Source: Candidatus Peribacteria bacterium (GTDB lineage Bacteria; Patescibacteriota; Gracilibacteria; BD1-5; UBA6164). Taken from it: DNA of 32,000 nt. The stretch covers positions 159,420 to 191,419 of the forward strand of contig CP060226.1 in NCBI GenBank assembly GCA_023898505.1, read 5' to 3'. A model generated the notes under the pieces. The model had not been told where the DNA came from. It worked only from the letters and a program-made list of their open reading frames with translations, and ran no database searches. Shown in pieces: positions 133-29,288 of this stretch (position 1 is the stretch's first letter; each line of letters starts with the position of its first letter). Made by a program: the position numbers and the translations under genes.

Positions 133-160
133 TTGAAAATTAAATAAAGTGTGGTATAAT
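133..160 (+). promoter_or_regulatory. sigma70-like promoter (TTGAAA, 16-nt spacer, TGgTATAAT)
   Basis: TTGAAA at 133..138 and extended -10 TGGTATAAT at 152..160 with a 16-nt spacer, about 35 nt upstream of the first possible start of the 194..1720 ORF. Sequence pattern only. Confidence 0.4.
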
Positions 161-193
161 AACTTAAAAGTATTATACCTAAATTATTAAATC

Positions 194-1720: not shown

Positions 1721-1793
1721 TAAAATAGAAGATACAAAATAATCATAATCACTGGAATAAAAATCAAAGCATACACCAGTCTCTCGTCCATAC

Positions 1794-3245
1794 TTATCTT
1801 TTAGATATAAACTTACCTCTGAGCACATAACGATCTAGTTCAGTGATTTGTACATGGACGGCATCCCCTTCTTGTAGATCTTCTGGTGCTTCAAAGAATA
1901 CTTCTTTAAAATTACGAGTTCTTCCATAAAAGCTTTCATCTTTTTTCCCAGAAATAAGAACCTCCTCTTCCCTTCCGATCATCATCTGATTACGTTTCGT
2001 AATATTTTCAAGTAGGGTGTCGTTGAGAATATGCCAGCGCTCAGCCTTGACGCTATCAGGGATATCATCAGGGTACATCTTTTCAGCCAGTGTTCCTTTG
2101 CGGACACTATAGCGGGCATTGAAAGCAAAATCAAACTCACACTCACGAAATGCGCGTAGGGTATCTTGAAACATCGCTTCTGTTTCTCCAGAAAAGCCAA
2201 CGATGATATCAGTAGAAATCGAAAACAATGGATCTTTTGAACGAAGATAGTCTACCTGTCTTTTAAAGTCTTCATAGGTATGTTTACGATTCATACGCTT
2301 GAGCATCTCGTTTGACCCCGATTGTAGGGCAAAGTGGAGATAGGGGCAAGTATGTTGGAGATCAAAATGGGCATCCAAGATATCTTGGGTCATATCGTGA
2401 GGATTACTGGAGGTGAAACGAATTCTCTCTATACCATTTATCCCATCTATATCGTTCAAGAGTTTTCGAAATGGCGATTCCCCTATTCATTCGTTCCAAC
2501 TACTTTTTTCAGTATTCCAAAGTTTCTTTTCCACAAACTGTTTTCCGTACGAGTTTACGTTTTGCCCGACAAGGGTGATTTCTTTTATCCCTGATCTTGC
2601 TACCTCCTCAACTTCCCTGATAATCTCATCGTGTGGACGAGAGATTTCTTTTCCACGAGTATAAGGAACGATACAAAAGCTACAGTAGTTATCACACCCT
2701 GTTTGGATGATAATGGGGGCTGAAGCCTTTGATTCTCAGTGTTGCTTGACTTTGAGATAGTCATCAAAGCTATGTTCTTTTCCGATAGAAGTTCCTGTGA
2801 TATGGCTTAAAATAAGAGGAATGTATTTCACCTCTTCTATGCGAAGTACGAAATCAATCAGGGGTGATCTGGGAAAGAGTTTATCATCCGCATTAAAAAT
2901 TCCGTCTTTTGTTTCTAAAAGTTCTATCTTCTTTGCGCGTTTTCTTTCTGTATCTGTAGAAAGATATGATTGATTCATCCCCGTTTTACGAACCATACAT
3001 CCCGTAATCCCGATGACGGGCTTTGGTCTGTTGTTGTACTTTGCTTGGTCTGATACTTCCCTCATAAATCCAAATACTCGGTCTTCCCCCTTTTGACGAA
3101 CAGAACAGGTATTAAATACCACAAGGTCTGCAGTTGAGATATCTTTGGCCTTCATAAGTCCTGATTGCAATAAAATCATATGAATCTTTTCACTATCCGC
3201 CTGATTCATCGCGCACCCAAATGTCTGAATAAAATATGATTTCAT
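1794..3245 (-). CDS. miaB: tRNA methylthiotransferase MiaB (radical SAM)
   Basis: Track fragments 1794..2459 and 2736..3245 share one frame (1452 nt) and are joined through two in-frame TGA. Contains the N-terminal [11 protein letters not shown] motif, the radical-SAM motif GCDNYCSFC in the untracked gap, and a C-terminal TRAM-like domain. Stop is TAA. Confidence 0.85.
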
Positions 3246-3381
3246 AAACTATTGATAAGTAATGAGCCTATTGTATGAAAAAAGACACAAAATCAAGCAT
3301 GAGTGAGAGATTTTCAAATTCATTTGCTTTTAATAAATATATTACTAGGATGTGTCCGTTTTATTTTTTTACTTTTGGCTT

Positions 3382-3843
3382 ATGGAAATACAAAAGTATA
3401 TGAAGGATCCAGTAACGATAAACTCTAACAAGAGCTATAAAGATGCGGTACAATTGATGACCGACTCAAGAAGTAATGCACTTATGGTAGTTGATGATGC
3501 CGGGAAACTTCTCGGAGGGATTGATATCGTGACCCTTATTAAGGTGGCAATTCCGGAGTATCTAAAGGGTGATAAAGAGGCTACTCATATTGCATCTCAT
3601 TTTGTCCCAGACAATTTGTTTGATACCTATATTCACGATGTACAAGATACACCGATAAAAGATTTTTATTTTGAGTATTCAAAGGTAGTAACTCCAAAAT
3701 CATCAGTTACAGAAGCAGCTATTAAGGCAACAGAAGGAAGACAATCAAAGATTCCTGTTGTGGATGAGGACGGAAAACCTCTTGGAATTCTCACGAGAGG
3801 ATGCATCAGAAAAATTATCGCTTCTGAACTCGGAATTCAATAA
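3382..3843 (+). CDS. CBS-domain pair protein
   Basis: MEIQKYMKDPVTINSN..ALMVVDDAGKLLGGIDIVTLIK and a second ..KIPVVDEDGKPLGILTRGCIRK repeat are typical of tandem CBS domains. ATG 3382 is preferred over the GTG at 3352 used by the track. No in-frame TGA. Confidence 0.75.
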   Translation: MEIQKYMKDPVTINSNKSYKDAVQLMTDSRSNALMVVDDAGKLLGGIDIVTLIKVAIPEYLKGDKEATHIASHFVPDNLFDTYIHDVQDTPIKDFYFEYSKVVTPKSSVTEAAIKATEGRQSKIPVVDEDGKPLGILTRGCIRKIIASELGIQ

Positions 3844-3872
3844 TTATTTAGTTTTTAAATCATATTTTTCAA

Positions 3873-5240
3873 ATGGATACACATACAGGAACTGAAGTGG
3901 TTATGTCTGTTGTAGAAAATACTGCTATGGACTCTGGAATAGGTTTTTGGGTAAGTATAGTGATATTTGCAATTACCTTCGCTATCATTTTAACAGAAAG
4001 AATTCATAGGTCTGTTATTGGTCTTATCTGAGCCCTTATTATGGTAATTGCGGGGATGTTTTTTGGTTTTTATTCTCCTGAACTTGCAAAAGAAGCACTC
4101 GATTTTAATACTCTGGGATTACTCTTTGGTATGATGATTATTGTGGGTATACTTGAACATACTGGAGCCTTTCAATACCTCGGAATTAAAGTAGCAAAAA
4201 AAACAGGTGGTGACTTATGGAAGCTAACCGTAGCACTCGGGACACTCACAACAGTACTCTCTCTGATATTAGATAATGTTACTACGATTATTCTTATCGT
4301 TCCAATTACACTCATCATCGCGAAGATGCTGAAGCTTAATCCTACTCCGATTCTGATGGCGGAAGCACTGCTTTCAGATACAGGGTGAGTAGCGACACTT
4401 GTCGGGGATCCACCAAATATCATGATTGGTTCTGCTGCTGGTTTCAGTTTTAATGATTTCTTGATTCATTCATTACCGATTGTGTTTGTTGCTTGGATTG
4501 CGACACTGATTACACTAAAAATTGTCTTTAGAAAAGAGTTTCAAGAAGGAACACATCCTGATCATATTGAACAACTGAATCAAATGAATGAAAAGGATGC
4601 CATTACTGATCCAAAAACACTAAAAAAGATACTTATGGTTCTTGGACTGGTTGTGTTGTTATTCTTTGTGCATCATATGATCCATATGGAACCATCTATG
4701 GTAGCTATCATCTGAGCGGCGATTGCTCTTATCCTCGTATCTGCGACAAAAGATCCTCAAAAAATCCTTGAAAAAACCGATCTATCTGTACTTCTTTTCT
4801 TTGGTTCTCTCTTTATTATTGTTGGAGGACTTGAACATGCTGGAGTACTTGAAGAACTTGCACAGCTTATCACTTCTGGAGCCGAAGGAAACATCTTGGT
4901 GACAGCACTAGTTATTCTTTGGGTATCGGCAGTACTTTCTGCACTCGTAGATAATATCCCAATGACAGTGGCTATGCTTCCAATTCTTGCATACCTCCAA
5001 TATGAAGTACAGCTTGAGGGGTATCAGCTCTTATGGTGGGCGCTTGTATTTGGTGTGGGTTTTGGAGGAAATGCTTCTCCAATTGGTTCAACTGCCAATG
5101 TAATTGTAGTGTCAAAATCAGAACAAACCGATACTCCTATTACCTTTATGGGATGGATGAAAAGCTGACTTTCTACGTCAGTAGTATCGCTTCTCGTAGC
5201 ATCGATATGATTGTATATATTGTCACTTTTCTTGGCATAG
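3873..5240 (+). CDS. ArsB/NhaD-superfamily (SLC13/YbiR-like) permease
   Basis: ATG 3873 plus track pieces 4041.., 4422.. and 4896.. share one frame and are joined by in-frame TGA. The motif DTG[TGA]VATLVGDPPNIMIGS matches the family with Gly at the TGA. TGA at 5166 and 5208 read through to TAG 5238..5240, adding a final hydrophobic helix. Confidence 0.8.
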
Positions 5241-5244
5241 TAGG

Positions 5245-5271
5245 AAACAGGAAGTAGTATACTTCCTGTTT
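5245..5271 (+). terminator. rho-independent terminator
   Basis: 11-bp stem AAACAGGAAGT / ACTTCCTGTTT with loop AGTAT, followed by a T run, immediately after the permease stop. Confidence 0.7.
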
Positions 5272-5298
5272 TTCACTTTTATTTTATTACCTTTCTTT

Positions 5299-7434
5299 AT
5301 GGAAGATTTACAGTTCTTGTTTGCTACACTTTCTCTCATTTTCCTCTTATTTATTTCGAGCTTTGTATATATTTTCTCCAAGAAGATAAAGGTTCCGTAT
5401 ACGGTATTACTCGTTGTAGTAGGGCTGCTTCTCATTCCTCTCTCTACGAATCCATTTTTCTCGTTTATCGATGATTTTCGACTCACTCCCGAAGTACTCT
5501 TTTTTGTTTTTCTTCCGGTACTCTTATTTGAATCTTCGTACAACATCAATTATAAGCAGATTATCAAGGAGTGGAAACCGGTAGCTGGTCTTGCTATACT
5601 TGGACTTATTGTTTCTACGATTATTATTTCAGTACTGCTCTATGGTATTTTCTACTTTGCAGATGTCGAAATACCTTTCTTAGTATTATTATTATTTGGT
5701 GCATTAATCTCTGCAACGGATCCAGTGGCAGTACTCGCAATATTCAAAAAAATGTGAGCTCCTTGTCGTTTAGCTCTGATCTTTGAAGGAGAAAGTTTAT
5801 TCAACGATGGTACGGCAGTGGCTCTATTTATGGTAATACTTGGAATCATCCTAGAAGGACATATTTTATGACTAGAAACGGTTTCTCTCGGAGTTCTTTC
5901 TTTTGTTTCGATGGTATTTTGAGGTCTTATATTTTGAGGAATCATGGGAATACTCTTTTCAAAGATTCTTGGGTCTATTCGTTATAACGAAGAAGCGGAA
6001 GTAACGATCACCATGATTTCTGCTCATGCGACATTTTTACTTGCAGAATTGATTACTTACTTCTCTCACTTTACTCCCCTTTCTGGAGTAATTGCAACCG
6101 TGACCTGTAGTATCATCATCGGAAACTATGGGAAGTATAAAATCACTCCTCGTGTAGAACAGCATATGCAAAGATTCTGGGAGTTTTTTGCATTTATTGC
6201 CAATACTGTCGTATTTATATTGATGGGGATCACTCTTTCCTATCTAGAAGTGGATATGATGTACTTTGTACCATTTATCGTAATTTCTATTATTGTGGTA
6301 GCGATTGCAAGAGCTGGAAGTGTCTATGGAGTTGTAGGAATATTAAATAAATTTGCAAAAGGTGATGAGCGCATCCCTATGACTTGGCAACACCTACTTT
6401 CTTGGGGAAGCCTTCGTTGAGCTTTAGCTATTATTATGGTACTCTTGATTCCTGGAAAGGGGGAGCCTGGATATATACACTTATTACACTTTCAGGAACA
6501 GGTAGGGTGGAGCTTTCCTTTTGATGTACAGGAGTTTTTACTTGTTCTTACCATTGGAAGTGTTATGTTTACGTTGTTTATTAAAGCAACAACGATTTCC
6601 TATATTATGCATCGTCTCAAAGTAGATAAGCTTGGAGATCTGGAAGAACTTGAGTACGAGGAGGGAAAGATTCTGTCTAACTTCAAGATCTTGAATAAAC
6701 TTGAGAATTCTTATAAAAAGGCATATCTATCACAAATTGAATATAGTGAACTGTTTCAGAAATATGAAAATAGACTCAAAAACGCTCTTTTTAACATAAA
6801 AGCAATCCTTAAAAATAACGAAGAAAATGAACTTCAATTAATAGCAAAAGCCTTATCTCTCCATGCACTCTGAATAGAAAAACAGTACTTAAAAGACCTC
6901 TTTATGTACAATGAAATTGATGAGAAGAACTTTAAGTATATCTTGAGAAAGATTGAACAACAAATATATAGAATCGAGGAATGAAGAGGGCAAATTCGTT
7001 CTATTAGCTGAGAAACTGAGGATTATGATATTTTTACGAAGTTATTTTTCAGATTTTTTAGAAACTTCGATAATCCTATCAATGAATATATCAGAAATAG
7101 AGCCAAGGCGATTATTACCAGTAAAGTAATTACTGAGCTTCGTATGCTCTCAGAAATTGATTTTGGTTTTGATAAAACTTTTTTTGATGATATCATAGAG
7201 CTCTATGCTCAGTTCAATAAAAGTGCAGAAAAAAAGAAAAATATGATTTCTCTTGAGATTCGTGCAACAATTATGGGGTTGGAGTCTCGTCTTGTAGATA
7301 AGTCATTACTACGCCTTGAAGAAGAAGTTCTAAAGGATCTCTTCCAAAAAGAAATTATCACTCCAAAGCTCTATATCAAGTTTATGGATGAAATCGAAGA
7401 AGAGATGTTTATGGATGTAAAAAGATTATCATAA
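5299..7434 (+). CDS. CPA1-family Na+/H+ antiporter (NhaP-type) with long cytoplasmic C-terminal domain
   Basis: Track pieces 5299.., 5944.., 6436.. and 7144.. share one frame (2136 nt) and are joined by about 8 in-frame TGA with no TAA/TAG. The signature KM[TGA]APCRLALIFEGESLFNDGTAVALF matches LGAPxRL..EGESLxNDG. Confidence 0.85.
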
Positions 7435-7435
7435 T

Positions 7436-7472
7436 AAAAAAGAGTCCCGCATCACCTGTGGGACTCTTTTTT
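7436..7472. terminator. bidirectional rho-independent terminator between convergent genes
   Basis: Stem AGAGTCCC / GGGACTCT flanked by an A run on the left and a T run on the right. The stop of the minus-strand gene (7471..7473) lies in its T run. Confidence 0.7.
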
Positions 7473-7905
7473 ATTGACTTGTTCCAGTTGCACTCGCTTC
7501 TTCTTGTACTTTTTGTACAGCATCAACGACTTGTCAGATAGCGTCTATCGTCTCTCCCGTCTGTTCTATGAGGGCTTTTCCTTCGATATATACATCTCCA
7601 GCTCCAGAAAGTGTTTGTCGTACCTCATCTATCTTTCATTTGGTAATATCAATCCCCTCTTTTGCTTTTTCACTATACTCTACCGCTCCACTATATATAG
7701 TAGTATACGCGTGTTCAAGTTCTTCTTTTGTTGGGATATTGGTTACCGTGTCATCAAATGTAGACTTGAAACTAATAATTCCTTGGCTTAGGTGTGGGAG
7801 TCAGAAAAAATCCTCTACAAGTTGTACCCTCGTAGGAAAGTTATATGCTAAAAGTGTGTATCCGACGATAATGATGATCAGAAGAAAATAGATTTTCTTT
7901 AACAT
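7471..7905 (-). CDS. hypothetical membrane-anchored protein (144 aa)
   Basis: Runs from ATG at 7905 to TAA at 7471, 435 nt, with three in-frame TGA. N-terminal hydrophobic anchor MLKKIYFLLIIIIVGYTLLAY. The plus-strand track ORFs here are antisense and low-complexity. Confidence 0.55.
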
Positions 7906-7955
7906 TGGAAGTAGTGTGTTATGTATGTATCGAAAATAAAAAATTTACAGTAATG

Positions 7956-7973
7956 ATCCCGAGTACTCGGGAT
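7956..7973 (-). terminator. perfect 18-bp palindrome, possible terminator
   Basis: ATCCCGAGTACTCGGGAT lies downstream of the 8008 stop on the minus strand. A T run follows, but about 12 nt away. Confidence 0.4.
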
Positions 7974-8007
7974 GACAAGGAAGATTTCTTTATTTTCTAC
8001 AAAGTAG

Positions 8008-8427
8008 TTATTTATCTCCGAGTAGGTCTTCAACACTACAATGAGTAGGTTTGAGATCTTTACTCAAATCAATGATTTCTTCATCTTTGATAAGACTTTC
8101 CTCAGTGTTTTTTGAAGAAACTGGAGTATGTGAAAGTCTTTTATTTTTGAGAATCACTTCAAGTCATTGACGAAGACCACTGAGGCGTTCTTTTAGTTTT
8201 TCGATACTTTCAGCGTTAATATTCATCATATTGAGATCTATTTGTGCAACCTCAGCTTTTACCATAGAGTGTTTCTCACATTTTGGACACTCGATATCGA
8301 TATTGATATTTGATCCAGCTGCCCCGATAATATCGATAGAAGTATCTTCTACTCCAGATCCACACATGGGACACTTATAACTGCTTACAAGAGATTCAAT
8401 CACTCATTTTAGTCCTTGGTAGTTCAT
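8008..8427 (-). CDS. zinc-ribbon protein (CPxC..CPxC), 139 aa
   Basis: ATG 8427, with TGA at 8404 and 8164 read through to TAA 8008..8010. Carries four Cys in two CPxC pairs (CPMCGSG .. CPKCEKH). Confidence 0.55.
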
Positions 8428-8476
8428 ATTTCGTGTTTAATGAATACAAGTAATCTACGATTATTATATCGTAATA

Positions 8477-9946
8477 TTATATTTGTTTCAAAATATTTTC
8501 GATTCTTTCTATTGACTTTTCTTTCCCGAGGATATAAACAAGTTCAAGAGCCCCAGGAGAAAACTCTTCTCCACTCAGTGCTACACGTACAGGCCAAAGC
8601 ACCTGTCCATTTTTATATCCAGCATTGCTGATACCAGAGATAAAGGCATCTTTTATACTCTCTAAACTTCCTACATCCGTTGTTTCTAAGATACTACGAG
8701 CAAGTTTCAAAGCCTCTTGCACCATGGTCATATCCGTAATCTTCATCTTTTCATGTAAAAAGAGGCTTGTATCTACAGCTCCTACTTCTCCATAGAAAAA
8801 CTTTGTCAGTTCTGGTAAATCGCTAAATTTCTTAATGCGTGTCGTCAATTCTCTGAGAATCTTCATATTATAGGATTCATCATAGGATTGTATCTTCACA
8901 AGAAACTCTGTATTGTAGCGCTCTAAATAGGTTATCCACTTATGATAGAGCATATCAATATCCATAGATTTCAAATAGTGGGCATTGAAAAAATCAAGAC
9001 GATCGACATCAAAAATAGCCCCAGCCTTATGTACGTGCTCCAGATTAAATCTTGCAATCAGTTCCGTGATCGTAAAAAACTCTTCTGTGGTTTTTGGATT
9101 CCACCCCAAAAGGGCAATATAGTTAATGAGTGCCTCAGTTAAATACCCTTTTTCTAAGTATTGTTCTACCGCGACATCTCCTGTTCTTTTTGAAAGTTTT
9201 TTCTTGTCTATCCCAAGAAGGAGGGGGATATGACTAAACGTTGGAGGAGTCCAACCAAAGGCTTCATAGAGGAGGATGTGTTTTGGGGTACTTGGAGTCC
9301 ACTCATCTCCACGAATAACGTGGGTGACATTCATCAAGTGATCATCTACCACATTGGCAAGATGATAGGTAGGAAAACCGTCAGATTTTAAGAGGACTTG
9401 ATCATCGATATCTTTGGTATGCACCGTTACTTTTCCTTTAATCGTATCATGAAATACTACTTCCCTATCTTTTGGTACCTTGAGACGAACCGTATATGGT
9501 ACTCCTGCATCGAGTTGTTCTTGTATTTCTTCAGCTGTCATATAACGACAGTGCCCATCATATTTAGTAGGAAGAGAAAGCTCTTGTTGTTCTTTTCTTA
9601 GCGTATCAAGACGTTCACTACTACAAAAACAATAATAGGCCATATCACTATCGATGAGCTGTTGCACATACTGTGTATAGATATCGAGTCTCTCTGACTG
9701 ATAGTATGGTCCGAGATCTCCCGGGTTATTTGGTCCTTCGTCAGGAATCAGCCCGACAGAGGCGAGTACTTTGAGCATATTTTCTATACTTCCCTCGACA
9801 TAACGAGTACGATCTGTATCCTCTACTCTGAGCATAAACTTACCGTTATGTTGTTTGGCATAAAGATAGTTATATAAAACAGTTCTCAGACTTCCGATAT
9901 GAAGATACCCAGTAGGACTTGGAGCAAAGCGAGTAACAACGGTCAT
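8477..9946 (-). CDS. gltX: glutamyl-tRNA synthetase
   Basis: Intact 489-aa ORF. N-terminus RFAPSPTGYLHIGSLRT (HIGH motif) and a KLSKR (KMSKS-type) motif. No in-frame TGA. Confidence 0.95.
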   Translation of the reverse strand: MTVVTRFAPSPTGYLHIGSLRTVLYNYLYAKQHNGKFMLRVEDTDRTRYVEGSIENMLKVLASVGLIPDEGPNNPGDLGPYYQSERLDIYTQYVQQLIDSDMAYYCFCSSERLDTLRKEQQELSLPTKYDGHCRYMTAEEIQEQLDAGVPYTVRLKVPKDREVVFHDTIKGKVTVHTKDIDDQVLLKSDGFPTYHLANVVDDHLMNVTHVIRGDEWTPSTPKHILLYEAFGWTPPTFSHIPLLLGIDKKKLSKRTGDVAVEQYLEKGYLTEALINYIALLGWNPKTTEEFFTITELIARFNLEHVHKAGAIFDVDRLDFFNAHYLKSMDIDMLYHKWITYLERYNTEFLVKIQSYDESYNMKILRELTTRIKKFSDLPELTKFFYGEVGAVDTSLFLHEKMKITDMTMVQEALKLARSILETTDVGSLESIKDAFISGISNAGYKNGQVLWPVRVALSGEEFSPGALELVYILGKEKSIERIENILKQI

Positions 9947-10142
9947 AAAAATTGTATTTACATTAATAATCCCTCCCTTCCACTTTGTTTCAGGAGCTCC
10001 CTTTGAAAAAGGGAGAAAAAAGATGTATATTCCTTAGTGTAACAAATTTTATGTGTTTGTAAACCTCAATTATGTGCAAATATTTCTGAATGGAGCAGAT
10101 TTTTGCTATACTAAAGATATATTTTATTTCTAAATTATCTCT

Positions 10143-10766
10143 ATGACTGTAGTAGCCCAGAAAAAGAAATCGCTTGATCTTGTGAGTACCCTAATCCCAA
10201 CGGTTATCGATAAAACTCCACAAGGAGAAAGAGCTTATGATATTTACTCTCGTTTACTGGAAGATAGGGTTATATTTTTAGGAGAAGCGATTGATAGTGC
10301 GGTAGCAAATACGGTTATTGCACAGTTGCTGTTTCTTGAAAAACAAGACTCAAAAGCAGGTATTACGATGTATGTAAACTCTCCAGGGGGACACGTGACA
10401 GCAGGTCTTGCCATCTATGATACGATGCAGTATGTGAGCTGTCCAGTAACAACGGTTTCTATCGGATTATCCGCCTCTATGGGTTCTATTATCCTAGCAG
10501 GAGGAGAAAAAGGAAAACGCTACGCACTTCCTCATAGTGAAATCATGATTCATCAACCACTTGGTGGAGCCGAAGGACAAGCAACCGATATCAAAATTGC
10601 CGCAGAGCATATCATCCGTACAGGAGCTAGGCTCTATAAAATACTTGCAAAGCATACCGGTAAATCTGTAGAACAGGTAGAAAAAGACTGTGATAGAGAT
10701 AACTTTATGACCGCCGAGGAGGCCCTTGCATACGGTTTGATTGATAAAATTATTAAAAATAAATAA
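10143..10766 (+). CDS. clpP: ATP-dependent Clp protease proteolytic subunit
   Basis: Intact 207-aa ORF with a catalytic triad context ([21 protein letters not shown]). No in-frame TGA. Confidence 0.95.
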
Positions 10767-10792
10767 AAGAGCGGAATATCCGCTCTTTTATT
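10762..10792. repeat. 31-nt direct repeat copy 1; also a bidirectional terminator hairpin
   Basis: AATAAAAGAGCGGAATATCCGCTCTTTTATT is identical to 16179..16209. Stem AAAAGAGCGG / CCGCTCTTTT. It overlaps the clpP stop (10764..10766) and the DUF262-HNH stop (10788..10790). Confidence 0.85.
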
Positions 10793-11951
10793 TGTTTCCC
10801 TTTGCTCTATTATGAGTCTTACAAAGCATCTCACAGTTTGAGATGTCTGTTCCCCCTCCTTTACTCCAAGCAGTAACATGATCTGCATCCATTTCAGCAA
10901 GTTTCCAGATTTTGTTTTTATTGGCATCATGTCAGACAGCGCAGTACGAACAGTTGGAAACTCATTTTGTTTCTGCTTCTTGAGCTTGTTTTTTGTATAC
11001 TGACATTTTCGTCGCATCATCAAAGATACGTACTTCTAACAATTTTGTATCCTGCATTCCACCAAGAACGTATTCAAACACTCATTTTCTATTTTTTACA
11101 TATGAGTCGGCATAAAGCTTTTGTACTTCTATAGAAACTTGTAGAGGATCAAAGGCTTTTTTATGATACTGTTCATAGAGTTTTCCCCATTCAAGACCAC
11201 ACATTTCTTTTTCGACATCTCGAAATACACTCGAAACCCAATCAATCACACTCGTAAAATAGGTCTTTAATTCGGCAATCGTATGTTCATATCTATGACG
11301 ACTCATATAGTCATCGATTTTTCCTTTACTTACCCAATCCAAGGCTCTCTCTAAAAACTCTTGTCTATTCGCACTTCCCTTGATATAAGCGGACCATTTT
11401 TGAATATTCGCATTTTGAGTATTACTAAACTCTTCTTTTGCCAGAGTTACAAACGGTCAGGAATAAATTGCATTGAGAAGTTCTTGATTATTCAGCGGAA
11501 CTCCTGAAATATTGATCGTTTTAAACCATTCTTTGATCTCGCTTTCTTCACCTTCACACTCATAGATAAGTAGCGGAGTTTCTAAGATAATCCTTTGCTT
11601 ATCGGCTGGGAGACTCCCAAAGTGTTGTTCCATCCCGTGTTCATCTTTTACCGCAAATTTATCCGTCACATAGCGACCAATACTCGTAATACGCTGCTGT
11701 CCATCGAGTACCTCATATTTTTCTTCTGCCACTTTTACAAAATAAATTAGTCCGAGAGGATAGCCCTTGAGAATTGATTCTATCACGGCAACATCTTTTT
11801 TCCCATCGGCATAGATATAGTTTCTTTGGTACTCTGGTTGAATCGTCAGTTTTCCAGAAAGTCCAAAGAGTCCTTTCCCTTCGAGTTCGTTGTAGACAAA
11901 TCCTTCACAAATATCTTTGACAGTGATGGTAGTCTTGAGAGTTGTTTTCAT
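10788..11951 (-). CDS. DUF262 (ParB-like nuclease/NTPase) protein with C-terminal HNH endonuclease domain
   Basis: Track pieces 11457..11951 and 11082..11342 plus an untracked C-terminus form one frame (1164 nt) with in-frame TGA at 11457, 11082, 10962 and 10932. Contains the DUF262 motif [12 protein letters not shown]. The HNH tail reads CSYCAV[TGA][38 protein letters not shown]. Confidence 0.85.
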
Positions 11952-11968
11952 AAGAACTATTTTAAAAA

Positions 11969-12847
11969 TTATTTTTTTGCTATTTTATTTGTTTTCCCCA
12001 ATTTTATATACGTTTCATTATTAAGTTTTTTCACTGACTTTATAAAATCTTCATTATTGAGACGAATAAGCATTTCTTGTCCTGTTTCCCTCAGAAATTT
12101 AAATCTTTCTTCCTTATCAAGTCACTTTTTTATCATATCATCATTCAGTGTTTCCAATCGAGATATAACAACAAGCTCATTAATACTTGCATAATCTCTT
12201 TGATTTTTCCCTCAAAGTGCTAACTTTGGATTTACATCAGCCCATTCTTTTTGAGTATATCACCATACTGCTACATTTAATAAGTCGGCTTCTTCAGCAT
12301 AATGTATCCATTTTTTATTTTTTGGATACTGTGATTTTGGAATAATATATTCTTTTACAGCATCTGTTTGGAGTCTATAATTAACTTTAGCCAAAACACG
12401 ATTTACACTCCATTCAAGGTTATAGGTATTGTTTTCAATATCTTTTAATCTCTGGTATTCTTTTATAAGGAGGAGTTTAAATGTAGGACTGATCCACGTT
12501 CAAAATTCAAAAGCAATATCCTTATGTGCATAGGTTCATCCATATCTTCCTGTTTTTGCGAATATTCCTATAGCATTGGTACGTTCTACCCACTCTTTCA
12601 CACTGACTTTATGTGTATTGGAACCTGCATGACTTCTAATTATGGCATATTCGCCATAATTAAAATCTGGATTATGCATTTGTTCCCATGCTGCCAAGAA
12701 CTCAAGTGTATTCGCATTTCTCAGCCAATCAGTAATAAAAAACTCTCCTTCTTTTGCTTCCAGCATATCTGTGATACAGATAAAATCCTCTGAATCCTGA
12801 TTCAAAGTATTGATAACGATATCATTGATTTTTATCTCTGGAGTCAT
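11969..12847 (-). CDS. KilA-N domain-containing protein
   Basis: Extends the track ORF 12536..12847 through five in-frame TGA to TAA at 11969 (879 nt). [27 protein letters not shown][TGA][12 protein letters not shown] matches the KilA-N/ORF6N-type signature. Confidence 0.8.
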
Positions 12848-12863
12848 AATTTATATATTTAAA

Positions 12864-13148
12864 TTACAAAAAATCAAAATCCCGATTCTTTCCGTCCTTC
12901 CCAACTATTAAGTATTGCTTAATAGTTGTCTCTCCAATTTCCCCATCACGCATAAGCGTCTTGATATGTTGGTTTATAGCTGGTACAGAAACTCCATACA
13001 ACTCTGCCATAAGTTTTTGCGTCATCCATAAATTTTCGTCCTCATAACGAAGTTCTACGATCGTCTTTTGATCTCCGATAGCAGAGGCATAGCTGAGGTA
13101 TTCGGCTGCGGAGGAGCGAATAGTTATGTTTTTCTTCTTTTGAGGCAT
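12864..13148 (-). CDS. RhuM-family N-terminal (wHTH) fragment, probably a truncated remnant
   Basis: ATG 13148. IVELRYEDENLWMTQKLMAELYGVSVPAINQHIKTL resembles the N-terminus of RhuM-like proteins. The ORF stops after 94 aa, where full-length members continue. Confidence 0.5.
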   Translation of the reverse strand: MPQKKKNITIRSSAAEYLSYASAIGDQKTIVELRYEDENLWMTQKLMAELYGVSVPAINQHIKTLMRDGEIGETTIKQYLIVGKDGKNRDFDFL

Positions 13149-13217
13149 AGTGTTTAAAGTAAATATTTTAGCTTGTTGAGAGGGAGGTTTTTCTGGATTT
13201 GTATATGACAAAATAGA

Positions 13218-14979
13218 TTATTTATTAAATCAAAAAAGTTCATTAATTTTCCCAAATAGAGGTATGAAATTTTTAAAGTCTTCTTTCGGCAAGTTGACAA
13301 GCTTTTTCCAGAAGTTTTTCTTTCCTTTAATTTTTACTATTTTTGTTCATCAGCTAGGTTCAGAAAAACCATCAAAGTAATCTATTTTTTGCAATACATC
13401 ATCTTCAAATAAATGCTCTAAAAATAAATAATTATGAGTATAACTTTCATCCGCATATGTATTTCGTGAAGATGGAACAGGAATTAATATGGAATGAAAA
13501 TTTTTATGATCTCACCTTGTTCTTGTTAAACATGTTTCCTTATTTCCATTTATTTCTAACCAACGAGTAGATTTCAATCCGTTAAAATTGTGAAAGCCAT
13601 CATCGAAATCGAAGATTCCTATTACTTTTTCTTGTTGTAGTTCATCAATTACTGGTGTATCTAAATATTTTTGCAAATTCTCTCTCCCATTTTTATCAAA
13701 AATAAAAAATGGAGAATTTTCCTCAAAAAGTTTTTCAAAATCATTTTCTACAAATGAAATATCCTTTAGTTTTAACCAAGCAATCTTATATATCTGCTTT
13801 TTATTGTCCTCTACAAAAACATTACATCTTTGTTTTTCGATGTTTTTTCCTAAATGTTCGCTTAGTTTTTGATATGTTTCAATAATCCCGATTTCTTTTT
13901 CTATCTCATCTGTATCATTTTCAAATCAAGAACCTGATATTGTTCTTTGCTTCCAATCAATTTTCCCAATTTGAGAAGAATTACTTTCGTTTTTTACTCT
14001 ATAAGAAGACACATTATCGCCCTTTAATGCTATAAATGGGAAAGAGTGTGAAGTTATAAAAATTTGCTTTTCCTCTCCATATTTTAAGAAATCTTGAGCC
14101 AAGGAGAAACAACGAAGCGGTTCATAAGAATTTTCAGGTTCTTCAAACCCCCATATGACCCTTTTCTTTGAATCTTTAGATATCTCGTTCAATATATCAG
14201 GAATAAATCTAGCTTGAATCCCATCACCTCTATCAAACAAAGATATACCATTTTCTGTTTCAATACCTACTGTTCTAACAAAATCTATTAAGGTATTTGG
14301 AATGTTAAATTGAGCATCTACTCCAGTACTACTTTTAAAATCATCAAAAAGTCTTTCTGTTTCTTCTCTAAGTAAGTTATTTAATTTTAGAGAATGGTCT
14401 TCAAATTTATTTTTTGATTTTTTATTTTGCTTTTCAAATAAAAATTGTTGGAGCTTTTCAAAAAGGAAATTAAAAAATTTTCTATCTTTTACAGCCGGGA
14501 CATATTCAAACTGGATATTATTCAGAAATTGAGATAACTGTCACTCTTGAGCTCTGGCTTTTTTGGGATCAATATTTTTTTTAATGTTATGTTTTCTTGT
14601 TTGATTAAGTCAATTTTTATCCCATATTTTCTCAACATAAAACTTTTCAGGTAAAACACCTCATGTCTCCTTAATGAAATGGATTTTTACTTTTACCCAT
14701 TACATCAACAGCACCTTTGTCTCTATTTGCTTCAGCTTTTTTATCACTTCTATCCCTTTGTATTTTTGATAAATCCCTCTTTAAATCAAATGGAACTCCG
14801 GGGGCAACTTCATTATTAAAAAATAAATTTAATGCTCGAAGAATATTTGATTTCCCAGAATCGTTTTTCCCAGAAAAAATATTTACATCTTGTAAGTCAA
14901 TAATCTCTACTTTCTTTTGTCCTCTTGATCAATCAAAAGACCTAAAATGTTTGATTTCAATTTTCTCTATTATTTTCAT
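13218..14979 (-). pseudogene. frameshifted ABC-type ATPase (AAA_15/21, OLD/AriA-like) fused to a TOPRIM/DUF4435-like C-terminal domain
   Basis: ATG 14979 opens a frame with Walker A FSGKNDSGKSNILRALN that ends at TAA 14671..14673. The remainder lies in the adjacent frame from about 14697 to TAA 13218: FEYVPAVKD, LFDRGDGIQ, Walker B IWGFEEPENSYEP, H-loop FITSHS, then VFVED..IGIFDFDDG. The total of 1762 nt is not a multiple of 3. About 9 in-frame TGA. Confidence 0.7.
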
Positions 14980-14983
14980 GTTT

Positions 14984-16069
14984 TTAGCTCTTATGTTTAA
15001 TTAAAATTCTTTTATATACAAATTCACCTAACAATAACGGAGCTCAACCTTTATCTCGAAAACCAGTAATATGATATTGATTATTTTCAGTAGCAATATT
15101 TGCATCAGCTCTACCTACAATCTCAAACTGTTCAGGACTATACTTATCCAAAAAACTAATCGGCACCCCCATCACACCATCATAATCACTCGGAATATTT
15201 TTTGCAAGAGATACTTCAATAGCATCATAGTTATCGTATTTTTGAAATGGCTGATTGGTAGAAAATTTTATAATGTCTGCCTCTTTCATAAGTGGCATTG
15301 GTTGATGGCGACGACCATGATCAATATTGGAAAACCAACAAACTCATGGAACACGACTAACCCTTTCTCCATTCTGTTCTTTCTCAAATTTATATGAATC
15401 GGCATACACAAAATCTTCGGGAACCTTGAAATACATTCCTCGATTAAAATTTGTTGCTCCCAACCATACTTCATTCTCCTTTATCAAAGGAAACACCTCC
15501 TTGTAAGTAATCGCGTTCATATTCCCAATAATCGCAAACTTCTTCTTTGCCTCCACAATCCACGCTAAAAACTCCCTAAAAAGCGAAAAAGGAGGATTGG
15601 TGATGATGATATCGGCTTCATCACGGAGCTTCTTTATTTCCTCACTACGAAAATCCCCGTCTCACTTGAGATAGTGCCACTCGAGATCTTCTACGTCGAC
15701 CTTGCCATCTCCCGTTGTATCGCGCGTAAGAGTAAAAATCTTTCCGTTTTTCCTGGTCTTTTTCTCATCAAATTGAGGAGCATTTGTTTCAAAAAGACTC
15801 GGTTGATAATTACTCTTATAGAGTTTACTCTCTGTTGCGTAACTTGTAGAAATGAGTTTCTTAAGACCAAATCGTTCAAAATTTTGTGCGAAAAACTTCG
15901 TGAAATTACTCCATTCTGGATCATCACAAGGAAGCAAAATAGTTTTATTCTTAAATACATCAGGATTATAATCAATATAGGCTTGAATTTCCTTATTGAT
16001 ATCATGATACTGGGTATAAAACTCATCGTTTTTTGCTTTTTTTGCTTGAGTAAGATTTTGGTTTGCCAT
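14984..16069 (-). CDS. EcoRI-family N6-adenine DNA methyltransferase
   Basis: Track pieces 15662..16069, 15344..15556 and 15044..15298 share one frame and are joined by TGA at 15659 and 15341. TGA at 15044 reads through to TAA 14984. Contains KNDEFYTQY, LLPCDDPEWSNFTKFF and catalytic IITNPPFSLF (NPPF motif IV). The stop lies 4 nt before the ATPase ATG. Confidence 0.85.
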
Positions 16070-16178
16070 AGATCTTATTGTAATAGTTTATACCTCGATT
16101 GTATATAAAATGTATATTATACTTTTCTTCTAAAAAATCAATAGTTTTCTTTACTATATTCACTCTTGAGACTTTCGC

Positions 16179-16209
16179 AATAAAAGAGCGGAATATCCGC
16201 TCTTTTATT
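16179..16209. repeat. 31-nt direct repeat copy 2; terminator hairpin downstream of the ParA-like gene
   Basis: Identical to 10762..10792. Lies between the methyltransferase upstream region and the ParA-like stop (16234). Confidence 0.85.
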
Positions 16210-16233
16210 GCCTCTTTCCTCGATAATTTTTTA

Positions 16234-17319
16234 CTAAGAATTTAGGTTGAGTAAATTTTTAGCGATATTTCTATAGGATCTATCTATACTACGTAATGCT
16301 TTTGTATATTGTCATGAATCTGTAGTAACATCTACTTGAGTATCGTGTTTTTTACATATATCTTGATCGAGATATATTACGGGAATTCCTTCTTTTTCAG
16401 CAATAGTTCTTAATTTTTGAGTGAAATCACAACACTTTTCAATGACAAATGGTATACTTTCCTTTCAGAAAATAGCACGAAATTCATTTTCAGTAATAGA
16501 TTTATTTGTCTCTAGTGTGTAAGTCTGGAAGTTTTTTACACTCCTATTTACATCTGCAATCCAATCTTCGGTTGCCTTAGAAAATCCTTCAGTATTCTTT
16601 AATACCCCATTATTAAAGCGTTTTGCTAATTGTATTACGAGACCTAAAAACTTTACTTTAAATGATAGCCCTTGAGGGAATCCTTGGGTTTGTCTATATG
16701 GAGATAATAGCTCCATCCAGTTTTGAAATATAGTAGATAAGTTATCGATAGCCTGAAGGGAAAAGAAACTCGGAGAGACGGGGGCGATAAAATAATCACT
16801 CGACATTACTAATAAAGCGTTAATGATACTGCTTGCGCTGGGGGAGGTATCGATAAGAATAAAATCATATTTCTCTGATTTAGATTTGAGTGCTTGCTCA
16901 AACTTATACGGAAGTTTATCAGTAAATGTATTTCGATTTTTGATAATCCCGTAAAGATTCGCTTCTACATTTGTAAGATTGATATCTCCAGAAATCAAGT
17001 CCACTTGACCATTTTTTGATATCTTACTTTGTTTGGAAAATAAGGATTTATCCACTTTCTCATCTTCTAGAAATTCTTTTAGATACTCTGAAAAAGATAT
17101 GTATTGTTGCGTATTTTTAGACCACAACGAGTTTTGTTCTGTTGAATATTCTACACTGGTAGATAATCCATACATTGCGGATGTTAAATTCATTTGTGGG
17201 TCAGCGTCTATCAGTAATACTTTTTTTCATGTGTCAGCAAGGGCGAAAGCAATATTATGAACGAGTGTTGTTTTTCCAACTCATCATTTATGATTAAAAA
17301 AAGAAATGATATTTCGCAT
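16234..17319 (-). CDS. ParA/MinD-family P-loop ATPase with C-terminal extension (361 aa)
   Basis: ATG 17319. The deviant Walker A is encoded as N-H-K-[TGA]-[TGA]-V-G-K-T-T (17281..17286). LLIDADPQ and FILIDTSPSASS motifs are present. Further TGA at 17227, 16465 and 16312. TAG stop at 16234. Confidence 0.85.
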
Positions 17320-17396
17320 ATCTATTCGCTATTTAAAAAATAATTATATCTACAGGTATCTTACGAGAAGCAATAAAAATATCAATAAAAAACTTC

Positions 17397-18296
<900 letters not shown>

Positions 18297-18302
18297 ATAT
18301 CT

Positions 18303-18399
18303 GTCATTCCTGCGAAGGCAGGAATCAATTAAAATATTAAATACTTATTGTATAGATTCCTGCCTTTCCCGCTAAAACGGGACACGGCGCAGGAATGAC
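18303..18399. repeat. nested palindromic (REP-like) element
   Basis: The outer 12-nt inverted repeat is GTCATTCCTGCG (18303..18314) / CGCAGGAATGAC (18388..18399). The inner hairpins are ATTCCTGC-GAAG-GCAGGAAT (18306..18325) and ATTCCTGC..CCCG-CTAAAA-CGGG..GCAGGAAT (18356..18396). Confidence 0.6.
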
Positions 18400-21205: not shown

Positions 21206-22201
21206 ATGTTCCAACCACTTCCTCCTCTCTTTCTCGAACGTCTGAAAAAGATCTATTCAGATGATGAACTTCAAATTATCGAATCTGGATATGCGACTCC
21301 AAAGAGAAATCCAGTTTTTCGTATCCACACAACGCAGCAAGAAAATATAGAATATACTCTTGCAGAGTTAAAAGAGAAAGAATTAAACATCAAACCGCTT
21401 TCATTTCTTAATCAGGCATATATCCTCGAAAATGGAACCGAAAAAGATCTTTGGGACCTTCAGTGCTATACGAACGGATGGATTTATCTCCAAGGAATTA
21501 CGAGCCAGATACCTGTAAATCTCCTGAAGAATTATTTAGAGACAGAAAATCTTTCAAAAGATAATTTGAAGATTATTGATTTAGCCGCAGCTCCAGGGGG
21601 AAAAACCTCACAGCTGGCGACACTCGGAACAGAAAATCACATCATTGCGTCCGAGCTTTCGACGATTCGCGCAGAAAAACTGAGATACAATCTCAAGAAA
21701 CTCTGAGTTGAAGATATCGAAATAGTTACCGGAGATGCTCGTCAGAGTCTTACTCATCTCCCAGATGACTCTATCGATATCCTTCTTTTTGATGCCCCCT
21801 GTAGCGGTGAAGGGATTATCAACTATACTCGAGAGAAAAGTTATGATGGTTGGGATATCCGCCACATCAAGAAAAACTATCTCCTTCAGCGTGATATCCT
21901 CAGAAATAACTTGAGGCTCTTAAAACCAGGAGGTATCCTCCTCTACTCTACCTGTACACTCGCTCCCGAAGAAAACGAAGGCATTCTCCACTTTTTACTC
22001 TGCAACTATCCAGAGTTACAGATGATAGATATTTCCTCATATTCACGTCTCCTAGAAGGAGAGGGGTTAGGAGTGAGGTCAAAACCATGAGTCACACAGT
22101 TTTGAGATACTGTTTATAAAAAAGAAGTATCCAAAGGTATGAGGATACTTCCAAGTAGTCAAAATGAAGGATTTTTTATTGGGATGTTTAGGAGGGATTA
22201 G
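21206..22201 (+). CDS. NOL1/NOP2/Sun-family rRNA (cytosine-C5) methyltransferase
   Basis: DLAAAPGGKTSQL (SAM motif I), FDAPCSGEG and YSTCTLAPEENE. Three in-frame TGA. TAG stop at 22199..22201. Confidence 0.8.
22048..22080. repeat. GC-rich palindromic element copy A, inside the rRNA methyltransferase CDS
   Basis: TCTCCT-AGA-AGGAGA hairpin followed by GGGGTTAGGAGTGAGGTC. 24 of 26 nt match 23653..23678 in the same plus-strand orientation. Confidence 0.6.
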
Positions 22202-23178
22202 TTATTTACTATCATTGCTAACCTCCTGTCTTGTGCAGTATTTGAAGAACAATGTTTTCATAAATATAATCTTGCCTCCGCTCTTGTAAATTTTAAAACT
22301 TGTCTTAAGTTTTTATAAGATGGGTGACTTTCTCAAATCATTTCAAACCCATTATCCTTATAATACGTTCCTATTTTCTTTAATATACTTTGAGCATGGG
22401 TATACAATCTAAAAGATGGCCACTTATTATTTGGATTTGTCGTATCTACTGGAGAATGGTTCGTATATCTCTTAAATACTCATTCTAACTTAAATACATC
22501 TCTGATTAGGGTTCTCAAATCTAAATTTCATTTTCAAGGGTTCCCATTTGGTTTATAATATTTTTCTTTTTTTAATTTTGGATATTGAATAAAAAAGTTA
22601 GCAAATAAGCTATCAAAGTATTCAACAGGGAGTTCAAAATCTCGACCAGCCATTGGTCACATATAAAAACTTGCGCTTGGTTTTGTTCATAGTACCTTTC
22701 ATGTTTCATTCAAAATAGGTAAATCTTCGAAGGTAATTCAAAGATTTCATAATTCTCTCATGATATTTGTAATGATCCCATTTGCTACTCATTTATATCA
22801 AGCATGAAATAATCCTATGGTATTACCATCTTGAGTTGAGAATGCAATATTAGCACAATCTGCTACTCATAATATAAGTGATACCTTTGTTTTTACTTCA
22901 GATATGGGAGTTCCGTTTAAGCCAGTAATAATTATACCATCAGTTCAAGGATTCAATAATGTGATATCATCCATATTCTGTATCTCCGATGCGTTTATGA
23001 CTTGAATATTTGGAGTAAATTGTGAACCATCAATTGCAATAATCTTTCTTTTACTATCTCTAAGTTGTAAGGCTTGTAAAATACGATAAGTTGTTTCTCA
23101 GATAGAAAAAGAACAGGGAAATACATCTCATACTACCTTTACTACTGCAGATCATAGAGAACGCTTTATCTCGTTCAT
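22198..23178 (-). CDS. YfiH/PgeF (DUF152, Cu-oxidase_4) family protein with C-terminal extension
   Basis: No ORF appears in the standard-code track. Coordinate-by-coordinate translation gives 981 nt from ATG 23178 to TAA 22198 with 17 in-frame TGA. Contains GVADCANIAF (ADC), GLFHA[TGA]YK[TGA]VANGI (HAGWRG-like) and GPMAGRDFELPVEY. Confidence 0.6.
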
Positions 23179-24344: not shown

Positions 24345-24396
24345 AGTATCTATTTTCAAAAAGTAAAATCCGAGCGAGATTATAAGCAAAAGCAGT

Positions 24397-24424
24397 AAAA
24401 AAGAAAGCAAATGCTTTCTTTTTT
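24397..24424. terminator. bidirectional rho-independent terminator
   Basis: 13-bp palindrome AAAAAAGAAAGCA-AA-TGCTTTCTTTTTT between the stop of gene 24435..25331 and the ychF start region. Confidence 0.7.
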
Positions 24425-24434
24425 AATGACAGAG

Positions 24435-25331
24435 TTATATTACTTTTCTTGGATTAATAGTTTCTCTATAATTCATTGATACTCCGTGAACTCAAATCTT
24501 AATATTTCGATTTTCTGTGTCAGCATCTGGGTTCATGGAATGAACTTCCCCGGTACTTCATATTCAGAGATTATATACTAGTCCATGGGAATATCTCTCA
24601 TGTATGTTGGTAGGAGAGAATCGTGTATGTGATACTTGTCTTCCCTCCTTTGATAATCCATTGGGGATAATAAGTAAGCTTTCTTCTCATTTATTTGGAT
24701 AAATGTGGCTTATATCTCTTGCATGGGTGAGTATAAATCTTTTTGTAAATCTTTCTCTTACTTCGATTAATGCAGTTCTTTCCTTCTCAGGAAGTCATCT
24801 ATGGACAAAACATATATTGAGCATATTTGTCCAAAATCATAGTGATTGTTCTGAGGGAGCCTCTCATCATAATTCAAGAACTGTAAATATCATCTGTTTT
24901 ACTTCTCTAAATGCATCTGGGTATCTTTCTTCAAAATGGCTTTCAGTAATGTATTCTTTACATGCCTGATCTGAAATGGGAGTGTCAACACAGATGGTTG
25001 GAATATTACTATAATTATCAATAGGTGAATATAATCATGTGAGTACTTGATATGCTGATTCAGGTCTATCTGGAGAGTCTATGTGTATGCCAAGATTTTT
25101 TAGTCGAGTAGTAGAGTTGAAAACATAACTACAAACTGCTTCTATAATTCTTCTTGTTTTTTCGTTAATGTATTTAGATATAAATTTTACTCCATGTAAA
25201 TTTCATTCTTTAATTGCTTGTTCTAAGTCTAATAAATTTCCCCATTCAATAAAGCTAATGATATCATCAACTTCAAATTGAGGTATCCTCGTCTCAGAAT
25301 GTTGAGAAAAAAGACTTTCTACAACCGACAT
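24435..25331 (-). CDS. hypothetical protein (298 aa), UGA-rich
   Basis: 897 nt from ATG 25331 to TAA 24435 with about 10 in-frame TGA. It is invisible in the standard-code track, where the only ORF (24703..24969, plus strand) is antisense. No recognisable motif. Confidence 0.55.
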
Positions 25332-29221: not shown

Positions 29222-29236
29222 AGGAAAGAACTAAAA

Positions 29237-29270
29237 AAATAGATACCTGTAAGTATACAGGTATCTATTT
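29237..29270. terminator. 14-bp-stem palindromic terminator
   Basis: AAATAGATACCTGT / ACAGGTATCTATTT flanked by A and T runs, between the 29289..29606 gene and the surface-protein start. Confidence 0.65.
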
Positions 29271-29288
29271 TAAATCAATATTTTTATA

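Follow-up and report, generated by a model that had tools for sequence, protein, structure and literature searches.

Gene content of the locus

The DNA analysed here is a 32-kb window (32,000 nt) of contig CP060226.1, from an assembly labelled Candidatus Peribacteria bacterium, and all positions are given as coordinates of this window. Its central feature is a block of 5,386 bp, which separates two copies of a 31-mer (X, AATAAAAGAGCGGAATATCCGCTCTTTTATT) and lies between clpP and a gene for a ParA/MinD-type ATPase. When open reading frames (ORFs) were called with TGA as a sense codon (genetic code 25), five co-oriented genes were found between the two copies of X, all on the minus strand. The results described below favour the interpretation, to which a probability of roughly 60% is assigned, that the block is a horizontally acquired defence cassette consisting of a single operon, and that it was inserted between the convergent clpP and ParA-like genes with a long target duplication.

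The first gene of the island operon encodes an EcoRI-family N6-adenine DNA methyltransferase (M; 14984..16069, 361 aa). It is followed by a gene for an OLD-family ABC-ATPase with a TOPRIM domain (13218..14979), a small ORF with a winged helix-turn-helix (HTH) domain (12864..13211), a gene for a KilA-N domain protein (11969..12847, 292 aa) and a gene for a nuclease that combines DUF262 with an HNH domain (R; 10788..11951, 387 aa). The initial annotation, made from the sequence without database searches, had described five co-oriented genes with tight spacing, and this was borne out under code 25: only 4 nt (14980-14983) separate the methyltransferase stop codon from the ATPase ATG, and 17 nt separate the KilA-N stop codon from the nuclease ATG. 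An AT-rich leader of 109 nt (16070..16178, minus strand) extends from the methyltransferase ATG (16069) to the right copy of X and is a putative promoter region. Weak sigma-70-like matches at 16180-16153 and 16105-16077 were not above chance.

A Pfam-based domain scan found no integrase, transposase, Xer or other recombinase domain in any ORF of the 32-kb window, in agreement with the earlier statement that the block has neither an integrase nor a transposase. The window also contained no phage structural genes, no tRNA or transfer-messenger RNA genes and no Rfam matches, and no replication gene was detected in the cassette by Pfam or PADLOC. With neither a recombinase domain nor a tRNA or transfer-messenger RNA gene in the window, an integrase-borne genomic island or prophage was rejected as an explanation.

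The 31-nt repeat and its hairpin

The two copies of X (10762-10792 and 16179-16209, spacing 5417) are identical at 31 of 31 positions, as had been claimed for a perfect direct repeat. None of 100 shuffled windows contained a match to X, and a k-mer census of the window identified it as the sole exact repeat of at least 20 nt on either strand.

X is a near-perfect palindrome with a perfect, G+C-cored stem of 14 bp, a 3-nt loop and A/T tracts, and thus has the anatomy of a bidirectional intrinsic terminator. Flanking bases outside the repeat extend the stem to 15 bp at the left copy (an A-T pair, 10761-10793) and to 16 bp at the right copy (GC/GC, 16177-16211). RNA folding of both copies on both strands gave energies of -21 to -29 kcal/mol (z -7 to -9), and the two best terminator-like sites within 7-20 kb of the window were the two copies of X. 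The left copy includes the clpP stop codon (TAA, 10764-10766), an overlap that had been recognized before, and on the opposite strand it also includes the stop codon of R (10788-10790), which had not. The right copy is the terminator of the ParA-like gene, 24 nt beyond its stop codon (16234-16236), and is located just 5' of the putative island promoter region.

Three other perfect, A/T-flanked palindromic hairpins with a stem of at least 12 bp occur in the window (5245-5271, 24396-24425 and 29236-29271). Their sequences are all different, and X is therefore not a generic terminator, at least locally. A scan of a genome collection detected the 25-nt core of X (AAAAGAGCGGAATATCCGCTCTTTT) as one copy each in seven unrelated genomes (L006-L012), which belong to Hahellaceae, Bacillus, Clostridia, Oscillospiraceae, Alphaproteobacteria, Bacteroidota and Micavibrio. 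This frequency is far above chance and shows that terminator sequences have converged. The complete 31-mer had no match in viral contigs.

The methyltransferase-nuclease pair

M and R form the two ends of the operon, and the database searches supported their earlier description as an EcoRI-family adenine methyltransferase and a DUF262-HNH protein. M carries an NPPF motif and is intact, with 3 in-frame TGA codons; it matched Pfam EcoRI_methylase (1.8e-128) over positions 1-345 of 345 and PADLOC MTase_II (2e-98) over its full length. R is likewise intact, with 4 in-frame TGA codons, and consists of an NTP-binding DUF262 domain (Pfam GmrSD_N, 3e-21) with the DGQQR motif and an HNH domain (3e-7); PADLOC assigned it to REase_II over the full length (6.9e-88). 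A methyltransferase catalytic motif and the DGQQR and HNH motifs are thus combined in two intact ORFs of one operon, which is the gene content of a Type II restriction-modification (R-M) system.

Homologs of R are abundant, all 8000 scored candidates having E values of 1e-10 or below, so that their number is at least 8000. The best of them were 78-82% identical and nearly all exactly 387 aa long, and came from Bacteroidota, Parcubacteria and metagenomes. Gene order was compared at 39 other loci with an R homolog (L094, L095 and 37 IMG/VR loci). M was found upstream of R and co-oriented with it in 35 of the 39, and the two genes were adjacent in 28, with gaps of -4 to ~570 nt; in L095, which is from a 4.1-Mb genome, an EcoRI-family methyltransferase overlaps the R start by 4 nt. 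At seven viral loci (L114, L115, L118, L119, L120, L122 and L123) the M-R gap is ~1.1-1.3 kb and encodes a 283-aa Bro-N protein, and the gap in L094 (6841-8001) holds an IS200-type Y1 transposase, with 81 nt from the 5' end of R in duplicate. A Moraxella plasmid of 9.2 kb and megaplasmids of Enterococcus faecium likewise carry M and R side by side, and further plasmid matches include 21 Lactococcus records; the plasmid pairs have 66-69% nucleotide identity to the window. At the level of sequence, M and R are demonstrably a widely mobile two-gene unit that occurs across phyla, phages and plasmids, and the short spacer between them is, to judge from these loci, a recurrent landing place for cargo.

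The conserved operon linkage suggests that M is the antidote of R. GAATTC was not avoided in the window (7 observed versus 6.3 expected under a Markov model), and an attempt to guess the recognition site by palindrome avoidance was given up for this reason and because a sequence of 32 kb is too short. Sequence searches of PDB with R, M and the ATPase returned no relatives. The most depleted 4-nt palindrome of the whole window was GATC (93 observed versus 176 expected, ratio 0.53, Markov model), a hint that the genome may encode a GATC-specific restriction system outside the window.

The nested block

The M-R spacer in the window measures 3,032 nt and contains three genes, none of which turned up at the 39 other M-R loci. 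The first is the ATPase gene, which matched Pfam AAA_15/AAA_21 and is split over two frames with 9 TGA codons in those frames. The product of the fused frames could be aligned over its whole length with intact homologs, which are 580-596 aa long and 53-71% identical. The initial annotation had described the gene as frameshifted; the broken frame was confirmed, and the lesion is a 14-nt deletion at ~14700, where the homologs read DV-RQKDL-WVK and the window reads GATGTA-A-TGGGTA. The gene is dead because of this deletion and is a true pseudogene. An identical deletion is present in the Logan contig L093, which is an independent assembly, and a programmed frameshift, a sequencing error and a homopolymer slip were rejected accordingly.

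The assignment to the ABC-ATPase/TOPRIM type, also made before, was upheld by comparison of the family. The C-terminal domain alone had no Pfam match, and an alignment of 27 sequences revealed invariant E395, D462, D464 and E526, i.e. the E, DxD, E pattern. The AlphaFold model of one homolog (P0248, pLDDT 82) matched the retron-Eco8 effector, Gabija GajA and Thermus OLD (6p74) with E values of 6e-16 to 4e-14 over 510-700 alignment columns, at TM-scores of only 0.30-0.39. By domain criteria these data support a predicted OLD-family nuclease, the frame of which is broken in the window. P0248 itself is intact and 68% identical, and lies in a Margulisiibacteriota metagenome-assembled genome (L136, 4599-13902) in the arrangement hsdM-Mrr-[ATPase]-hsdS-Fic-hsdR.

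The second nested ORF encodes 115 aa if translation starts at a TTG, or 94 aa from the ATG at 13148. The initial annotation had taken it for a RhuM-like fragment, which was not confirmed: Pfam detected only a winged HTH, even at E values up to 10, and the product matched just the N-terminal part of the models of the PADLOC candidate family PDC-S05. The third nested gene was correctly named as KilA-N before (Pfam KilA-N, 2e-20) and matched the PADLOC candidate PDC-S22 over its full length (1e-108). Its homologs, at 43-53% identity, were found in Streptococcus satellite phages and Staphylococcus phage EW. A likeness of 19 nt between the 3' ends of R and the KilA-N gene is in different frames and A-rich, and was judged to be due to chance. 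Overall, the claim of a defence content was supported by the Pfam and PADLOC matches of the island genes, with full-length assignments to REase_II, MTase_II and PDC-S22, and by the OLD-family structural matches.

UGA as a glycine codon

In-frame TGA codons of the island genes fall on conserved glycine positions, as had been proposed. In R, the codons at aa 165, 290 and 340 align with Gly in 118-119 of 119 homologs, the last of them being the CAV[TGA]HDAN example given in the initial annotation. The TGA at aa 136 of M corresponds to Gly in 25 of 27 homologs, and those at aa 17, 123 and 146 of the ATPase to Gly in 49-51 of 55. Three of the five in-frame TGA codons of the KilA-N gene align with Gly. 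UGA had been said to occur in every intact island gene, which holds for the four larger genes and fails for the small winged-HTH ORF, where there is no in-frame TGA. TGA makes up 20% of the Gly codons of the island (12.0 per 1000 codons) and 19% of those of the flanks (12.7 per 1000). A tRNA-Gly(UCA) or a loss of release factor 2 was not visible in the 32-kb window.

The use of TGA varies among the other genes of the window. It accounts for 17 of 28, 10 of 18 and 15 of 39 Gly codons in the ORFs at 22198-23178 (minus strand), 24435-25331 (minus strand) and 194-1720 (plus strand), respectively, and the housekeeping genes gltX and clpP have no TGA for Gly. The source record (USN58733.1-USN58737.1), a contig of 1,355,370 bp from a metagenome-assembled genome, was annotated in table 11 despite UGA = Gly, and contains the ParA-like protein as a 242-aa fragment; the island genes must be broken in this public annotation too. 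The label Candidatus Peribacteria sits oddly with a UGA = Gly code.

Trp at Gly-conserved columns was taken as the mark of a homolog from a UGA-recoded host that had been miscalled in code 4. It occurred in none of the 119 other R homologs listed. Among the 55 aligned ATPase homologs only the distant P0272 and P0293 (46-50% identity) had Trp, at 9 and 13 of 17 Gly columns, and by this mark the two proteins would come from other UGA-recoded hosts and be mistranslated in code 4. The nearest ATPase homologs (64-71%) are standard-code. Since Trp of this kind is lacking in close homologs, the cargo has its nearest known relatives among genes of the standard code. The perfect repeat and the host-level density of UGA together indicate that the cassette was probably recoded before it reached the clpP/ParA-like site; no second recoded copy came to light. 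Lineages with UGA = Gly are already known to have recoded prophages, R-M systems and horizontal gene transfer (PMC8080830, PMC10746230).

Flanking genes, composition and independent assemblies

The left flank is formed by clpP (10143..10766, plus strand, 207 aa, USN58734.1), which has no TGA, matched Pfam CLP_protease at 8.5e-82 and converges on the left copy of X. The GltX protein of the window corresponds to USN58733.1. On the right, the gene for the long ParA/MinD-type ATPase (16234..17319, minus strand, 361 aa) has 5 TGA codons and is represented in the source record by the table-11 fragment USN58737.1. Its closest relatives are 78% identical (L003, 10001-15308) and 70% identical (L005, 10001-16769), and lie 3-5 kb from dnaN and 3-5 kb from dnaA, respectively; homologs with 55-64% identity were found in Proteobacteria. 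The ParA-like gene is probably chromosomal and not part of the island cargo, and in these bacteria the long ParA may act as a chromosomal partition ATPase encoded close to the origin.

Comparison with the flanks revealed that the block is the strongest tetranucleotide outlier among the 5.4-kb windows (distance 0.21-0.22 versus 0.13-0.17), with a lower G+C content (0.328 versus 0.362). Within the block, the G+C content is 0.302 for the nested block, 0.377 for R and 0.357 for M. The compositional offset is driven by the nested block, and R and M are host-like.

Three Logan contigs, taken from independent k=31 assemblies, correspond without mismatch to positions 143-10791, 10763-16208 and 16180-18392 of the window, and thereby confirm the sequence, including the deletion in the ATPase gene. 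As a repeated 31-mer node, X would split an assembly into exactly these three pieces; an integrated island looks the same in a k=31 graph as a circle plus an empty site. In the right flank, Logan contigs break at 18392, 25224 and 26889. The contig that starts from the right copy of X ends at 18392 inside a hairpin-like sequence (CCTGCC...GGCGCAGG, 18355-18395, in the spacer between the polyprenyl synthase gene and uppS). This break represents a further k=31 branch, due either to a second repeated element or to a point that varies between strains.

Proposed insertion of the cassette and alternative explanations

The data can be combined into the following model. The core of the cassette is a widespread two-gene module of the R-M type, in which M is predicted to mark the host DNA by N6-methyladenine and R to cut unmarked DNA. 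A 3-kb block with the OLD-family gene, the winged-HTH ORF and the KilA-N gene would have been wedged into an M-R spacer of ~10-20 nt. Transcription is expected to start within the 109 nt upstream of M and to end at the left hairpin, which would be shared with clpP, while the right hairpin would terminate the ParA-like gene. The insertion would have duplicated the 31-bp bidirectional terminator, so that each neighbour retained one copy, and the cassette could be lost again by recombination between the two 31-bp repeats, with one terminator remaining.

This layout corresponds to R-M insertions with long target duplication, a class known from the literature (Furuta, Abe, Kobayashi 2010, PMC2853133), the first case of which was found in Helicobacter pylori (Nobusato et al. 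2000, cited in PMC2853133 as ref. 37). R and M lie inside the insert, which at 5,386 bp is shorter than 20 kb and has no mobility genes, and the repeat of 31 bp exceeds 30 bp. The missing integrase is explained by this correspondence without a new mechanism, a link that the initial annotation did not make.

Several observations weigh against an insertion of this kind. An empty site did not turn up: gene order is not shared with the window at any of the 80 loci of ClpP relatives, even those with 80-84% identity, the cluster of ClpP sequences at 90% consists of this sequence alone, with no sibling, and metagenome contigs gave no match to a 41-mer made of the clpP end and X. The closest relatives of the ParA-like protein (78% and 70%) are in other gene contexts. 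The count of X covers the 32-kb window of a 1.36-Mb genome, and the repeat length of 31 bp is just 1 above the 30-bp threshold that Furuta et al. set against site-specific recombination. At the R end, the boundary between island and X is placed precisely on the R stop codon, which a simple duplication does not predict and which could reflect joining at an AATAA microhomology. Beyond the limits of the repeat, each copy of X gains 1-2 further stem pairs, and neither the predicted empty site nor the predicted circle junction would have them. Finally, the evidence for M as an antidote is the conserved M-R linkage, and the characterised DUF262 nucleases (GmrSD, BrxU, SspE) are mostly modification-dependent.

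A different reading of the repeat, considered unlikely, is that X serves a trans-acting recombinase (host Xer-type, IMEX-like or hairpin-specific) as its attachment site, in which case the cassette would be cis-mobilisable and bounded by attL and attR. IMEX and CIME elements have perfect direct repeats of ~30 bp that are imperfect palindromes, which X resembles, and the island has no integrase of its own. A length of 31 bp is also within the range of identity of att cores, which was the reason for the 30-bp threshold in PMC2853133. The anatomy of X, however, is that of an intrinsic terminator and not of two 11-bp arms with an asymmetric centre of 6-8 bp, and the 32 kb encode neither Xer nor another recombinase. 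A turn of the cumulative GC skew near 8-10.5 kb merely follows the gene strand, and the relatives of the ParA-like gene lie near dnaA and dnaN, not near a terminus. The recurrence of the 25-nt core as single terminators in seven unrelated genomes argues in the same direction. A dif/IMEX site was rejected as the leading explanation on account of the skew, the terminator anatomy and the lack of an Xer gene in the window.

It is likewise unlikely that the block is an old resident that was never inserted here, the second X being secondary (a local duplication, a gene conversion, or a copy that came with the ParA-like gene). Cassette and flanks have equal densities of UGA-Gly codons, which would point to long residence in a UGA = Gly lineage, and signs of decay or truncation are seen in two of the three nested genes. 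The ParA-like gene has homologs of 55-64% identity in Proteobacteria and lies in differing contexts in its relatives, and the extra flanking pairs of each hairpin look as if they had been tuned in place. On the other side, identity at 31 of 31 positions, including the loop and the A/T tails, would be hard to keep while ~20% of the Gly codons were recoded. The block is also the compositional outlier of the window, and its core module is mobile across phyla, phages and plasmids.

Little probability is given to a 5,417-bp circle with one X, existing now or recently, that would enter and leave the chromosome by homologous (Campbell-type) exchange with the X located there; at the extreme, the integrated form would be an assembly mis-join of the circle with an empty site. 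The Logan contigs end in 30-nt overlaps with X and fit an integrated island or a circle plus an empty site equally well, and the same R-M module occurs on small plasmids such as the 9.2-kb Moraxella plasmid. The cassette, however, has no replication gene, and the block is integrated in the 1.36-Mb source contig, where reads of at least 100 nt would span the 31-nt repeat and make a mis-join unlikely. Moreover, a circle leaves the origin of a host terminator on it unexplained.

A more far-reaching proposal, put forward as a speculation with a small chance of being correct, is that the terminator hairpin is the recombination site of an integrase-free cassette system private to UGA-recoded bacteria. 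Recoded cassettes would hop between bidirectional terminators by means of a hairpin-processing or Xer-like enzyme or the R-M nuclease, and each hop would duplicate the terminator. If this were true, perfect repeats around recoded cargo would mark a recent hop within a mobilome restricted to code 25.

Very improbable is a dispersed, many-copy repeat, i.e. a terminator of the REP (repetitive extragenic palindrome) or MITE (miniature inverted-repeat transposable element) type that brackets the block by chance: the breaks of the Logan contigs at X, which would fit it, show that there are at least two copies, whereas the 32 kb contain two, the other perfect palindromic hairpins differ in sequence, and no match was found for X in viral contigs or for the 41-mer of clpP end and X in metagenome contigs.

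Comparison with known systems

Insertion of the defence cassette with a long target duplication thus remains the preferred interpretation, and the island is most similar to the R-M insertions described by Furuta et al.: R and M are found in an insert of less than 20 kb, between near-perfect direct repeats of more than 30 bp, without a transposase or integrase. One published Haemophilus case is also similar in that a regulator and an ATP-binding protein interrupt the R-M genes (PMC2853133), as the extra genes do here. Unlike the published cases, which were defined by the empty site, the present one is known from the occupied site alone. It also differs in that the duplicated target is a whole bidirectional terminator hairpin with two stop codons, that the repeat, at 31 bp, is at the bottom of the length range, and that the host reads UGA as Gly.

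The nested arrangement has a parallel in type I hsd operons, where accessory defence genes (ABC-type ATPase-nucleases and genes of the HTH, KilA-N or Fic type) are nested tightly in the R-M operon. A well-known example of such an embedded defence gene is prrC, which lies within the EcoprrI locus. The hsd operon of L136 contains a nested member of the same ATPase family with 68% identity. Unlike in these operons, the host operon of the island is a two-gene, Type II-like pair, and the cargo is located in the M-R spacer.

R resembles GmrSD, BrxU and SspE in having an N-terminal DUF262 domain with DGQQR and a C-terminal His-Me nuclease domain, and it had weak PADLOC matches to NsnA and PD-T4-2_A. 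In contrast to these proteins, its C-terminal domain is Pfam HNH (PF01844) and not DUF1524, PADLOC assigned it to REase_II, and the 387-aa protein is almost always paired with an upstream N6-adenine methyltransferase. This pairing suggests, on the evidence of gene order, that R belongs to a classical and not a modification-dependent restriction system. The nested ATPase shares the ABC ATPase head and the TOPRIM domain with E, DxD, E with the OLD family (P2 Old, Thermus OLD, GajA and the retron Eco8 effector). Unlike in OLD-family systems, no partner helicase (GajB/UvrD) or retron adjoins it, and the copy in the window is a pseudogene. With IMEX and CIME elements the island shares the absence of an integrase and the position between direct repeats of a palindromic site of ~30 bp. 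Unlike the IMEX sites, the terminator does not have dif anatomy, and the window has no Xer gene and no evidence of a replication terminus.

With nearest relatives that are standard-code and a UGA-Gly density equal to that of the host, the cassette would be a clear case of genes entering a lineage with UGA = Gly by horizontal transfer. It illustrates the one-way valve proposed for code 25, through which genes can enter and become unreadable on going back out (PMC8080830). The locus also flags a public genome that was annotated with the wrong genetic code and in which the island genes are fragmented. As interpreted here, it would extend the integrase-free spread of R-M genes with long target duplication to the Candidate Phyla Radiation, and it indicates that nested defence cargo, known from type I hsd operons, can also be accommodated in the short spacer between M and R of a Type II-like pair. 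Compared with the systems known so far, two features are modestly new, namely the nesting of defence cargo in a Type II-like M-R spacer and the duplication of a whole bidirectional terminator as the target.

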